Assembly: GCA_004402895.1 (NCBI GenBank)
Contig: SORT01000002.1
Location: 5,947-69,946, forward strand
Origin: Fidelibacterota bacterium MT.SAG.3
GTDB lineage: Bacteria > Fidelibacterota > SORT01
Direction of reading: 5' to 3'
Length of the DNA: 64,000 nucleotides
This document shows, piece after piece, positions 3,943-9,589 of this stretch. Positions within the stretch are counted from its first letter, which is position 1, and each line of letters starts with the position of its first letter. A model generated the notes under the pieces. The model was not told the DNA's origin, did not search any database, and saw only the letters and a program-made list of their open reading frames with translations. A program made the translations under genes and the position numbers.

Positions 3943-4974
3943 TCAATTCCCCAATACGTGCAATTGCCACAGATCGCGCCTGGTTTTGTGCAGGAAAGGG
4001 GAAATAGCCAGCTGGGCCGTTTTACCGATATTTTTCTCCAGGTAACGAAGTTCCTTGAATTTATCCTTGATTTCCGGGTCCGGCTCCATAGAATGCCCGA
4101 TCTCACGCATCATCAAAACACCTTTCGCCCTAATAGATAGCTCAAGGTGAATTCGCAGATAACAGATCATGTCGAAGACAACTTCAGGGGAGAATTTTTC
4201 CTTTATCGGCTGAAGATATTTTCCAACCCTTGAATCAGAAATCTTTCCCTTTTTAATCAGCTCCAATAATTCCATGTCAGTATCGAATCCGACACCCAAC
4301 CATTCCTGAAGTGATTTCTCGCTTCTGGTAAATACTTGATTTAAAACGATAGGAAGAGTAACTAAAAGGATTACTGTGTATATGACCGGTGAGAAGAAAA
4401 ATTGATTATAAAACGAATGGAGCAGCACCGCAATGATAAAACCCATCAGGAAGACACTGATATTAACCGAGGATTTACGGTCAGAAAGCACTTTTGAGAT
4501 AATAGAAAAAGTGGCAGAGGTGCCGCCATGCATAACTGCAGTGCCGAATCCTCTTATAATCCATACCGACAAGTTAGTATCTGTAGAATATTGTAAGTAG
4601 TAAATATTTTCAATGATGCCGAATCCCGCTCCAATTGCGATACCGGCGATTGCCGCATCCACCATAAAACCGATTCTCCCGGATTTGATCAGGTATACGA
4701 TGAACACCCCTTTTAACATCTCTTCAATCCAGGGAGCGATGTATTTCGTGTAAAACAAAAATTGTATATCAAATTTCTGCATAACCCAATCGTTGACCAA
4801 GGCAGCGGAAAGTGCCGCCAACACACCAATTGATATGGCGCCTAACACCGTTCGTAGATTTAGCAGCTTATAGCTATCGAGGACCACAAGAAACGACAGA
4901 AAAACTATTACGGGCGCCAAGCTTACAAGGATTCTTATTAGGTATTCCATAGAGGTCATGTTAAGCTCAGCCAT
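3943..4974 (-). CDS. PrsW-family glutamic-type intramembrane protease with soluble C-terminal extension
   Basis: Multi-TM protein with APWIEEMLK (EExxK), GAGFGIIEN, MHG and LLHSFYN motifs. Confidence 0.85.
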   Translation of the reverse strand: MAELNMTSMEYLIRILVSLAPVIVFLSFLVVLDSYKLLNLRTVLGAISIGVLAALSAALVNDWVMQKFDIQFLFYTKYIAPWIEEMLKGVFIVYLIKSGRIGFMVDAAIAGIAIGAGFGIIENIYYLQYSTDTNLSVWIIRGFGTAVMHGGTSATFSIISKVLSDRKSSVNISVFLMGFIIAVLLHSFYNQFFFSPVIYTVILLVTLPIVLNQVFTRSEKSLQEWLGVGFDTDMELLELIKKGKISDSRVGKYLQPIKEKFSPEVVFDMICYLRIHLELSIRAKGVLMMREIGHSMEPDPEIKDKFKELRYLEKNIGKTAQLAISPFLHKTRRDLWQLHVLGN

Positions 4975-5010
4975 TGCTTAATCTCCTCTGTAAAAAATTC
5001 AGTAATACGC

Positions 5011-8104: not shown

Positions 8105-8128
8105 CCTTTAAGCGAGAGCGGCTTGATA

Positions 8129-9589
8129 TTACTCCACAGACCGTCTTTGGAATTCCGCACTTGCCATCATACTGGCAAATTCCCTATTCGCAAGCATCGC
8201 AGCGAACGATTTGTTGGATAACATCGCTGCAAATTCCCTATTAGCGAGCATAGCCGCGAACGACTTGTTAGATAACATTGCGGCAACCTCACGATTTGCA
8301 AGCATAGCCGCGAACGACTTATTGGATAACATAGCGGCAAACTCCCTATTCGCGAGCATAGCCGCGAACGACTTATTGGCTAACATAGCGGCAAACTCCC
8401 TATTTGCAAGCATAGCCACGAACGACTTATTGGCTAACATAGCGGCAAACTCCCTATTCGCGAGCATAGCCGCGAACGACTTATTGGATAACATAGCGGC
8501 AAACTCCCTATTCGCGAGCATAGCCACGAACGACTTGTTGGCTAACATAGCGGCAAATTCCCTATTCGCAAGCATAGCCACGAACGACTTGTTGGCTAGC
8601 ATTTCCGCATACTCCCGATTTGCAAGCATTTCTGCGTATTCCCTATTCGCGAGCATCGCCGCAAACGACTTGTTGGATAACATCGCTGCAAATTCCTTGC
8701 TTGCAAGCATCGCCGCGAACGATTTGTTGGCTAACATAGCGGAAAACTCACGATTCGCGAGCATCGCCGCGAACGACTTGTTGGATAACATCGCTGCAAA
8801 TTCCTTGCTTGCGAGCATCGCCGCGAACGACTTGTTGGTTAACATTGCGGCAAATTCCCTATTCGCGAGCATCGCAGCGAACGACTTGTTGGCTAACATC
8901 GCGGCAAACTCACGATTTGCAAGCATCGCCGCAAACGACTTGTTGGATAACATTGCGGCAACCTCCTTATCCGCAAGCATCGCAGCGAACGACTTGTTGG
9001 CTAACATTGCGGCAAATTCCCTATTCGCGAGCATCGCAGCGAACGACTTGTTGGCTAACATCGCGGCAAACTCACGATTTGCAAGCATCGCCGCAAACGA
9101 CTTGTTGGATAACATTGCGGCAACCTCCTTATCCGCAAGCATCGCAGCGAACGACTTGTTGGCTAACATTGCGGCAAATTCCCTATTCGCGAGCATCGCA
9201 GCGAACGACTTGTTGGCTAACATCGCGGAAAATTCCCGGTTTGCAAGCAGCTTCTGAAATTCATCGCTCCGAATCATATTCACGAATTCTGCATTCTTCA
9301 TCATCATTTGAAAGTTTTCACTTTCTGCGAGTTTCAAGAATTCACTGTCCTGCATAAGCTTGCTTAAATCGGCTTCGGTCTGTTTTAAAACAACATCACT
9401 TTGGGTTACCTCGCCGCTGCGGACAACTTTTCTTTTCCCGATAGTTCCAGCGAGTTCATCCTCAGTGGGAATTTGGTAAAGAGATACCACTATTACACTG
9501 GTAACAGCGGCAATAATGCCGCTAATTACAAATATCCTTCTGCCATTGTTCTTTACTTTCAATTCCTCTGCCATAGTTCCCTCCTTCAT
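8129..9589 (-). CDS. Single-pass membrane/secreted protein with 40 tandem 9-aa repeats (FAAMLANKS/FAAMLANRE)
   Basis: N-terminal hydrophobic helix (IFVISGIIAAVTSVIVVSLY); residues 120-479 are 40 x 9 aa; third codon positions vary while amino acids are conserved. Confidence 0.85.
   Translation of the reverse strand: MKEGTMAEELKVKNNGRRIFVISGIIAAVTSVIVVSLYQIPTEDELAGTIGKRKVVRSGEVTQSDVVLKQTEADLSKLMQDSEFLKLAESENFQMMMKNAEFVNMIRSDEFQKLLANREFSAMLANKSFAAMLANREFAAMLANKSFAAMLADKEVAAMLSNKSFAAMLANREFAAMLANKSFAAMLANREFAAMLANKSFAAMLADKEVAAMLSNKSFAAMLANREFAAMLANKSFAAMLANREFAAMLTNKSFAAMLASKEFAAMLSNKSFAAMLANREFSAMLANKSFAAMLASKEFAAMLSNKSFAAMLANREYAEMLANREYAEMLANKSFVAMLANREFAAMLANKSFVAMLANREFAAMLSNKSFAAMLANREFAAMLANKSFVAMLANREFAAMLANKSFAAMLANREFAAMLSNKSFAAMLANREVAAMLSNKSFAAMLANREFAAMLSNKSFAAMLANREFASMMASAEFQRRSVE
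8150..9260. repeat. Coding tandem repeat, 27-bp unit with 54-bp and 162-bp super-periods
   Basis: cgaacgacttgttggctaacat recurs every 54 bp; sequence from 8881 is repeated at 9043 (162 bp). Confidence 0.95.

Follow-up and report, generated by a model that had tools for sequence, protein, structure and literature searches.

In Bacillus, the anti-sigma factor RsiW is cleaved sequentially, by PrsW and then by RasP, according to PMC5358783. PMC4105308 speaks of "PrsW and other unidentified proteases" that act ahead of RasP. Here we describe a locus related to this pathway in Fidelibacterota bacterium MT.SAG.3. It lies in a stretch of 64,000 nucleotides (contig SORT01000002.1, positions 5,947 to 69,946), which is called the window below. 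Three minus-strand genes encode a membrane-anchored repeat protein (REP), an HExxH protein (PEP) and a PrsW-family protease. We propose, with a probability of about 0.58, that they make up the envelope-facing part of a regulated-proteolysis system, widespread but undescribed, that is related to SigW-RsiW-PrsW and serves bacteria with two membranes. The gene content, its conservation, the motifs and the homology to RsiW and PrsW are direct observations.

The locus resembles the B. subtilis SigW-RsiW-PrsW-RasP pathway in its PrsW-family protease, the motifs of which are intact. Most related loci also have a sigma factor of the extracytoplasmic function (ECF) type and a single-pass anti-sigma factor with an RsiW profile and an extracytoplasmic domain. 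Extra extracytoplasmic peptidases are needed in the Bacillus pathway too, where PMC4105308 gives them no name. In contrast to B. subtilis, all components here lie in one operon, the hosts are diderm, and a protein of about 1000 residues with HExxH, propeller and barrel regions is present. A hypervariable repeat protein, whose G[TA]IG module is conserved, comes in addition, as do linked RsbW and STAS genes. The window copy has no sigma or anti-sigma genes.

In the SigE-RseA-DegS-RseP pathway of Escherichia coli, the site-1 protease DegS is a serine protease with a PDZ domain. The likeness to this pathway is one of logic only: in a diderm host, a trans-envelope signal leads to the step-by-step degradation of a single-pass anti-sigma factor. 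The site-1 protease here is of another family, and the E. coli pathway has neither a repeat protein nor a barrel-linked peptidase. As with RsbU/RsbV/RsbW, a HATPase_c_2 kinase, a STAS protein and a PP2C phosphatase adjoin the module, but the sigma factor to which they are linked, if there is one, is an ECF factor with a membrane anti-sigma factor and not one of the SigB/SigF type. Periplasm-spanning repeats are found in TolA and TonB, and amphipathic repeats in proteins of the apolipoprotein and LEA types. REP has the N-terminal transmembrane anchor and long, low-complexity helical repeats of TolA and TonB, but not a conserved C-terminal domain or motor genes. Its units of 7–12 residues are predicted to be separate two-turn helices, unlike the repeats of all these proteins. 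PEP resembles Peptidase_MA_2 proteins of about 1000 residues, in which an HExxH...E N-terminal domain is followed by a propeller. By these comparisons the gene set appears to be a variant of SigW/RsiW/PrsW-type proteolysis with two uncharacterised protein families. No description of it was found in the main texts searched, and the main text of the ECF reclassification paper (PMC7826278) makes no mention of PrsW, STAS or RsbW.

Conservation of the gene trio

The three genes and their parts lie in the window as follows (ORF, open reading frame; HMM, hidden Markov model).

8129..9589, minus strand: REP, 486 residues, bitopic membrane-anchored protein (predicted) with an array of 9-residue repeats (ORF; N-module HMM)
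9356..9589, minus strand: REP N-module, residues 1-78, with basic tail, transmembrane helix (~19-42), GTIGKRK (G48-G51) and ...QSDVVL (alignment)
8141..9382, minus strand: REP repeat array of 5 degenerate, 40 near-identical and 1 degenerate 9-residue units (register listing, Tandem Repeats Finder)
8072..8109, minus strand: intrinsic-terminator-like hairpin and U-run between REP and PEP (folding energy against shuffles)
5011..8004, minus strand: PEP, 997 residues, predicted secreted HExxH protein (ORF, alignment, AlphaFold model)
7087-7917, minus strand: PEP HExxH...E helical domain, residues ~30-306 (AlphaFold model)
6235-7077, minus strand: PEP beta-propeller, residues ~310-590 (AlphaFold model, Foldseek)
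5014-6132, minus strand: PEP predicted beta-barrel, residues ~625-997 (AlphaFold model)
3943..4974, minus strand: PrsW-family intramembrane protease, 343 residues, core residues 1-210 (Pfam PF13367)
3946-4344, minus strand: conserved 133-residue C-terminal domain of PrsW (conserved alignment columns)

Homologues of PEP are numerous. At least 5227 were found at E ≤ 0.001 among 8000 candidates scored (90%-identity clustering, word-indexed search). The best 120 align over the full length with 50–69% identity, and the names given in their sources are all "hypothetical protein". Gene neighbourhoods were compared in 80 loci (L017-L096), the best of at least 563 confirmed PEP-matching stretches, with one genome per species.

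The PrsW gene accompanies PEP in nearly all of these loci. A tblastn search with the window protein found it in 76 of the 80, and the four misses end less than 1 kb after PEP. With an HMM it was found in every locus that has at least 1.1 kb downstream (74/74). In 70 loci it follows PEP immediately in the same orientation, in L077 it is one gene removed, and L051, L053 and L064 have it upstream on the opposite strand. The median spacing between PEP and PrsW is 17 bp. The REP N-module was detected with an HMM trained on these loci in a co-oriented upstream frame in 67/80 loci, and in 64 of the 65 that have 1.5 kb or more of upstream sequence; the exception is L022, where the repeat ORF contains a run of N. 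A tblastn search with the window REP itself gave a match in 39 of 83 loci (the 80 and three from the same phylum). The carriers are labelled Bacteroidota, Ignavibacteria, KSB1, Latescibacterota, Acidobacteriota, Zixibacteria, Calditrichia, Marinimicrobia and Gemmatimonadota. REP, PEP and PrsW are thus a conserved functional unit in many bacterial phyla.

An earlier note on this DNA had described the three co-oriented genes, the repeat units, the hairpin and the catalytic motifs, and all of these are found where it placed them. It had also proposed, as a test, to ask whether a gene with a transmembrane helix, GTIG and variable repeats always lies upstream of the peptidase and PrsW in other genomes. 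By the counts above the test is passed, and an adjacent repeat gene is the rule.

Operon context

Clustering of the ORFs from the 80 loci showed that co-oriented genes of the HATPase_c_2 (RsbW-like), STAS and ECF sigma-70 families (Pfam) recur upstream. The trio usually closes an operon that also encodes an RsbW-like kinase, a STAS protein, an ECF sigma factor and an anti-sigma factor. Of the 54 loci for which 4 kb or more of upstream sequence is available, 43 have the ECF sigma gene and 43 an anti-sigma domain (fused to REP in 12, a separate gene in 31). STAS was found in 52 of the 54 and the RsbW-like gene in 48. Across the full set of 80, there are 16 loci with the anti-sigma domain in one frame with the REP module and 34 with it as a gene of its own. 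As the trio is mostly found inside a sigma/anti-sigma operon, it looks like an envelope-signalling protease system and not a peptide factory.

The separate anti-sigma factor is a protein of about 255 residues, often encoded after the sigma gene and ahead of REP. Its conserved N-terminal domain (signature ...E-L-x-N-[KR]-E-I-D-G-x-N-S...E-P-P-x-x-L-K) is followed by a transmembrane helix, the motif G-T-[ILM] and a beta-rich tail. The glycine of the motif, G134, is invariant in 15 aligned anti-sigma factors. The profile of this protein matches RsiW (5wuq_C) with E 8e-10; the next anti-sigma match is RskA, at 0.14. Unlike RsiW, the domain has no zinc motif and carries E-I-D-G instead. The sigma factor of the operon matches SigW with E 1.2e-24, among its top three PDB matches, and lies near the AlgU and SigE types. 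Inspection by eye of the regions upstream of the operons for a shared ECF-type promoter gave nothing usable.

Weak anti-sigma matches in the window genome (G000) and in G013 and G036 proved to be sigma/anti-sigma pairs of the zinc type at other loci, without the GTI motif and outside the module. At G000:C18:4738-7881, an unrelated ECF sigma gene and a zinc-type anti-sigma gene, again without a GTI motif, precede a secreted protein of 581 residues with long internal repeats. In two same-phylum genomes (L100 on G013:C3 and L101 on G036:C4), a sigma factor closely similar to that of the operon (HMM E 1e-49 to 1e-50) is paired with a zinc-type anti-sigma factor that has a Pro/Gln-rich tail. A GGDEF-type protein comes next, and both pairs are distant from the locus of REP, PEP and PrsW.

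The repeat protein REP

REP begins with a basic stretch, followed by one hydrophobic helix and the segment AGTIGKRK...QSDVVL. This N-module is what the family has in common. In an alignment of 37 sequences D65 is invariant, and G48, I50, G51, Q60 and L68 are conserved in at least 90%. Almost all upstream ORFs share the pattern of a basic tail, a transmembrane helix, often Y-P-P, and G-[TA]-I-G...K-Y-R-x-x-Q-I-x-x-x-D-V-x-L. The REP frame is the sole match of the N-module HMM, both within the window and in the whole genome. A profile search of 1.84 billion proteins (50%-identity clustering) gave 1711 representatives at E ≤ 1e-3. In 33 of the best 150 module proteins the module starts at residue 57 or later, which fits fused N-terminal domains. 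When compared with hhalign, the module aligns with the transmembrane/GTI segment of the anti-sigma factor, GTIG on GTI, with a probability of 74% and E 2.7e-5. REP thus resembles the membrane and extracytoplasmic part of an anti-sigma factor, with or without the sigma-binding domain.

The sequence beyond the N-module is hypervariable and its length ranges from 40 to 787 residues across the loci. Among 69 scored REP ORFs, the repeat period is 9 in 31, 12 in 9 and 18 in 6, and 14 are aperiodic; periods of 6 and 7 have two cases each, and 5, 8, 10, 11 and 16 one each. By eye, A, L, E, K, Q and N abound in the units, which often open with a helix-capping residue (N, S, T, D or P). The conserved part of REP is the transmembrane/juxtamembrane module; the units are not conserved. 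Tandem N-module genes lie upstream of PEP in two loci, three at L089:5383-7514 and two at L026:5423-7844, and in-place duplication of the repeat-protein gene is therefore possible.

In the window REP, the 40 near-identical units read LANKSFAAM or LANREFAAM. At the DNA level, Tandem Repeats Finder reports arrays of 54 and 162 nt at 8174-9249 with 83–92% matches. The copy number is read from a short-read assembly. Contigs of four public runs break inside the array at window 8200-9200, and no listed piece spans it; these runs come from one marine-sediment study, are labelled "metatranscriptomic WGA" and are possibly DNA, and 112 further contig pieces lie outside the listing. The count of 40 units therefore rests on one short-read assembly. 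A single-sequence AlphaFold model of the window REP has a mean predicted local distance difference test (pLDDT) score of 64.8, and about 70 in the array. Each 9-mer is modelled as a helix of seven residues and a break of two. A Foldseek search with this model found no natural analogue among solved structures. The matches were designed repeat proteins with TM-scores up to 0.24, and the best match was a designed repeat fibre (TM-score 0.23).

The HExxH protein PEP

The catalytic motifs of PEP are HELAH at residues 125-129 and YHEG with E179. H125, E126, H129 and E179 are invariant in 21 homologues, so that PEP has the HExxH and downstream Glu that define gluzincins (Peptidase MA clan). The N-terminus is signal-like. 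An AlphaFold model built on 21 sequences (pLDDT 74.6, predicted template modelling score 0.74) has a helical N-terminal domain, a propeller and a C-terminal all-beta barrel. The best Foldseek matches of the model are to TolB (6pnv, E 3.8e-9; 2hqs, E 5e-9; target TM-scores 0.47–0.50), and the PDB profile search returned propeller matches only. By its modelled match to solved propellers, the middle region is a probable TolB-like beta-propeller. About 16–18 strands, counted from the strand list, are modelled in the all-beta region 625-997, where the conserved FGGFGNNWVD sits in a long, low-confidence loop.

PEP itself has no Pfam or NCBIfam match. Among the 21 homologues, sub-threshold Pfam signals were seen for Peptidase_MA_2 in 8 (PF13485, best E 0.0013), PD40 in 9 and Omp85_2 in 9. 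The Omp85 signals (PF19143) reach E 0.00034 at best and are absent from the window PEP. The alignment of PEP against one true Omp85_2 member gave an hhalign probability of 0.25%. A paralogue in the same genome (L014, G000:C6:39295-40863, 989 residues) shares 25% identity with PEP over residues 51-581 of the latter (E 7e-9). It exceeds the Pfam Peptidase_MA_2 cut-off with 41.2 bits, which supports the assignment of PEP as a peptidase. Unlike PEP, this paralogue has neither PrsW nor the REP module within 9 kb. Peptidase_MA_2 matches were present in all 21 relatives searched, many as open frames of about 1000–1090 residues.

From the motifs and the model, we propose that PEP is an HExxH metallopeptidase with a TolB-like propeller on a predicted barrel. 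From the modelled barrel, its location may be the outer membrane, where the earlier note had placed it; membership in the Omp85 family is not established.

The PrsW-family protease

The window PrsW matches Pfam PF13367 over residues 41-210 with 80.1 bits (cut-off 23.5, E 2.1e-22). E84, E85, K88, F118, E122, N123, H149, H186 and N190 are invariant in 37 homologues. We take these residues to be the catalytic motifs EExxK, FxxxE(N), H and HxxxN. A 133-residue C-terminal domain is conserved in the same alignment, and the domain alone gave a tblastn match in 77 of the 83 loci. This domain sets it apart from the B. subtilis PrsW, and the window protein scores 33.8 bits on the B. subtilis PrsW equivalog (NCBIfam NF033739), below the cut-off of 225. 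By sequence, the window PrsW belongs to a distinct subfamily with a C-terminal domain. The positive-inside rule places this domain, probably, in the cytoplasm. An Atlas search with the C-domain returned PrsW-family clusters only and no functional lead, and a PDB profile search with PrsW gave no match.

A complex of PrsW and residues 1-110 of REP was predicted, with an alignment as input for each. The interaction prediction score from aligned errors (ipSAE) was 0.53 (runs 0.61, 0.46 and 0.53), and the best control reached 0.23. Of 80 solved complexes in the benchmark, 58 passed the mark, as did 2 of 110 mismatched pairs; at ipSAE ≤ 0.60, where this prediction lies, there were just 7 of the 80 solved complexes among those passing, plus both mismatches. 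The partner pLDDT was at least 63, and the contacts agreed between runs to at least 63%.

The hairpin between REP and PEP

The gap of 124 nt between REP and PEP holds a hairpin with perfect arms of 11 bp (8104-8094 and 8087-8077), followed by TCTTTTT. As RNA, it forms a 16-bp stem with G-U pairs counted, with a folding free energy (dG) of −25.4 kcal/mol and a z-score of −4.79; none of 200 shuffles was equally stable. With its stable GC-containing stem, its U-run and its position at a gene end, it has the features of an intrinsic terminator and predicts termination, although it is absent from the list of a consensus terminator scan.

A hairpin and T-run after the repeat gene recur in other phyla, so that what the earlier note saw at the window is a wider feature. 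We surveyed 53 testable REP-PEP intergenic regions (14 were skipped because of length or N). A hairpin with dG ≤ −15 directly before a T-run is present in 30 of the 53, compared with 14/53 on the antisense strand, an imperfect control because hairpins are palindromic. The recurrent hairpin fits an expression of the upstream genes above that of PEP and PrsW, as judged from these predicted structures.

The window locus and its sigma-less subtype

Genes for an RsbW-like, a STAS and a GAF-PP2C protein adjoin the window trio.

9967..10386, plus strand: RsbW-like HATPase_c_2 protein, divergent neighbour of the trio (Pfam PF13581, E 2.2e-25)
10423..10758, plus strand: STAS-domain protein of the anti-sigma antagonist type (Pfam PF01740, E 7.4e-19)
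10776..12062, minus strand: GAF + PP2C (SpoIIE-type) phosphatase (Pfam PF07228, E 2.2e-47, and GAF)

GAF-PP2C proteins of 425–435 residues are also present in related loci. The module variant G[TA]IG[KQ]R, which in the window reads GTIGKR, occurs in seven REP genes from loci with at least 4 kb upstream, all of them sigma-less, and in none of 43 module ORFs from loci with a sigma or anti-sigma gene. As six of the seven carriers are labelled Acidobacteriota and one Neomarinimicrobiota, the variant reflects few independent events. The module is patchy within the family. Five genomes of the same family lack this PrsW subfamily, and the same five have no PEP orthologue (only a distant paralogue in three, no match in two).

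The block from PrsW to GAF-PP2C is bracketed by dispersed intergenic repeats at window 3643-3932, 12241-12703 and 13818-14032, which match no Rfam family. They contain a direct pair of 98 nt (12606-12703 and 13860-13957). Two genomes of the same genus gave 32 and 25 matches, most of which are pieces of these three elements with 73–95% identity. In both, pieces of different elements adjoin one another.

Proposed mechanism and alternatives

We infer the topology, the order of events, the output and which protease cuts which protein from the features above. REP would sit in the inner membrane with its N-terminus inside and its chain of short amphipathic helices in the periplasm. Its G-[TA]-I-G would lie just outside the membrane, as would the similar G-T-[ILM] of the RsiW-like anti-sigma factor that most taxa encode in the same operon. 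PrsW in the inner membrane may recognise and cut the juxtamembrane modules of the anti-sigma factor, of REP, or of both (site-1 cleavage). PEP would trim or remove the periplasmic repeat domain and so license or finish cleavage by PrsW. A site-2 protease would complete the cleavage wherever a sigma-binding domain exists; site-2 (M50) proteases are present in the window genome. The hairpin may set REP in excess over PEP and PrsW. At loci with an anti-sigma domain in REP itself or in a gene beside it, the pathway would end in the release of the adjacent ECF sigma factor. In the sigma-less subtype, the output may run through the cytoplasmic C-domain of PrsW and partner switching by RsbW, STAS and PP2C.

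Several results weigh against this proposal. No ECF sigma or anti-sigma gene is present at the window locus, and the window REP, with about 18 residues before the transmembrane helix and no anti-sigma domain, falls outside class I anti-sigma factors. An HMM of the operon-type anti-sigma factor found no match in the genome assembly (69% complete). Nor is there a sigma or anti-sigma gene near three orthologous loci of the same phylum, which keep STAS or RsbW and come from genomes that are 93–99% complete. No sigma output can therefore be claimed for the window copy. The count of 64/65 for the N-module is partly circular, since the HMM was trained on loci on which it was counted; the anti-sigma HMM, too, was built from the same 80 loci, which were picked by similarity to PEP and are mutually related, not independent. 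The motif shared by REP and the anti-sigma factor is only 3–4 residues long, beside the transmembrane helix, and transmembrane segments inflate profile scores. The score of the PrsW-REP complex was graded as weak support. PEP ends in ...QILQ, without the aromatic end typical of many outer-membrane proteins. Finally, the sigma regulon might include PEP and PrsW as effectors and not as signal transducers.

This last idea can be put as follows: PEP would be an envelope quality-control peptidase with a BepA- or Tsp-like role, and PrsW a membrane housekeeping protease, both simply transcribed by means of the ECF sigma factor; REP would be a structural or protective protein of the periplasm, and none of them would transduce a signal. 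The trio does lie downstream of the sigma and anti-sigma genes, as regulon members often do, the terminator-like hairpin separates REP from PEP-PrsW, and a sigma-less subtype exists. PEP also belongs to a large superfamily of Peptidase_MA_2 proteins of about 1000 residues, present in 21/21 relatives without PrsW. We nevertheless consider this reading unlikely, for the sole characterised role of PrsW, in the sources cited above, is the site-1 cleavage of RsiW, and the anti-sigma factor of the operon is RsiW-like. An anti-sigma domain is moreover fused to REP in 16 loci, and the linkage of the genes is near-obligate (74/74 and 64/65). REP might instead be no substrate at all but a TolA-like helical link that spans the periplasm between PrsW and PEP, where the number of repeats gives the reach and a break of the link is the signal. 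The transmembrane anchor, the long helical low-complexity array (40–787 residues after the module), the TolB-like propeller and predicted barrel of PEP, and the predicted, weakly supported placement of the REP module against PrsW would all suit such a tether. It is quite unlikely nonetheless, given that the array lengths vary almost 20-fold, 14 of the 69 scored ORFs have an aperiodic region, and the C-terminus of REP shows, by eye, no conserved tip for docking on PEP.

The earlier note had favoured a multi-core precursor, akin to ribosomally synthesised and post-translationally modified peptides, in which PrsW frees REP from the membrane and PEP cuts or exports amphipathic peptides of 9 or 18 residues. 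At the window alone, the 40 near-identical units, the two protease genes downstream and a hairpin that could give an excess of the "precursor" speak for it. The wider comparison does not sustain it. Neither the length nor the sequence of the units is kept from one taxon to another, and certain members lack repeats altogether. Only the transmembrane/juxtamembrane module is conserved. The genes that recur beside the trio are those for sigma, anti-sigma, STAS and RsbW proteins, and REP itself carries an anti-sigma domain in the 16 loci already mentioned. No modifying enzyme, exporter or transporter was recognised among the families present in at least 10 of the 80 loci (clusters 0-5 belong to the module itself; clusters 6-9 were judged by eye and not by a family search). 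We regard this reading as highly improbable. Its step in which PrsW acts on the membrane-anchored repeat protein stays plausible, in view of the RsiW-like anti-sigma factor in the wider operon and the fused REPs. The complex prediction asked for there lends this step the low score given above, and the structure prediction for PEP yielded the barrel and propeller. The note's fallback, a stress sensor, comes nearest to the evidence.

A more specific version of the proposed proteolysis system can be imagined as a trans-envelope tripwire. The REP chain would reach the barrel-anchored PEP, and damage to the outer membrane or its separation would let PEP and PrsW cut REP. A fast-evolving repeat number would adjust the sensor to the periplasmic width, and in the sigma-less subtype the signal would pass through the cytoplasmic domain of PrsW to STAS, RsbW and PP2C. 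This is a speculation to which we give little credence; if true, it would link envelope proteolysis to partner switching in a new way.

Significance

PrsW-dependent signalling is known essentially from one Gram-positive pathway. Here, PrsW shares an operon with an RsiW-like anti-sigma factor, a metallopeptidase/propeller/barrel protein (as predicted), a new repeat-protein family and partner-switching genes. If the proposed regulated-proteolysis system is real, it would provide candidates for the recognition site of PrsW and for the missing trimming peptidase, and a testable envelope-stress pathway for many poorly studied phyla.

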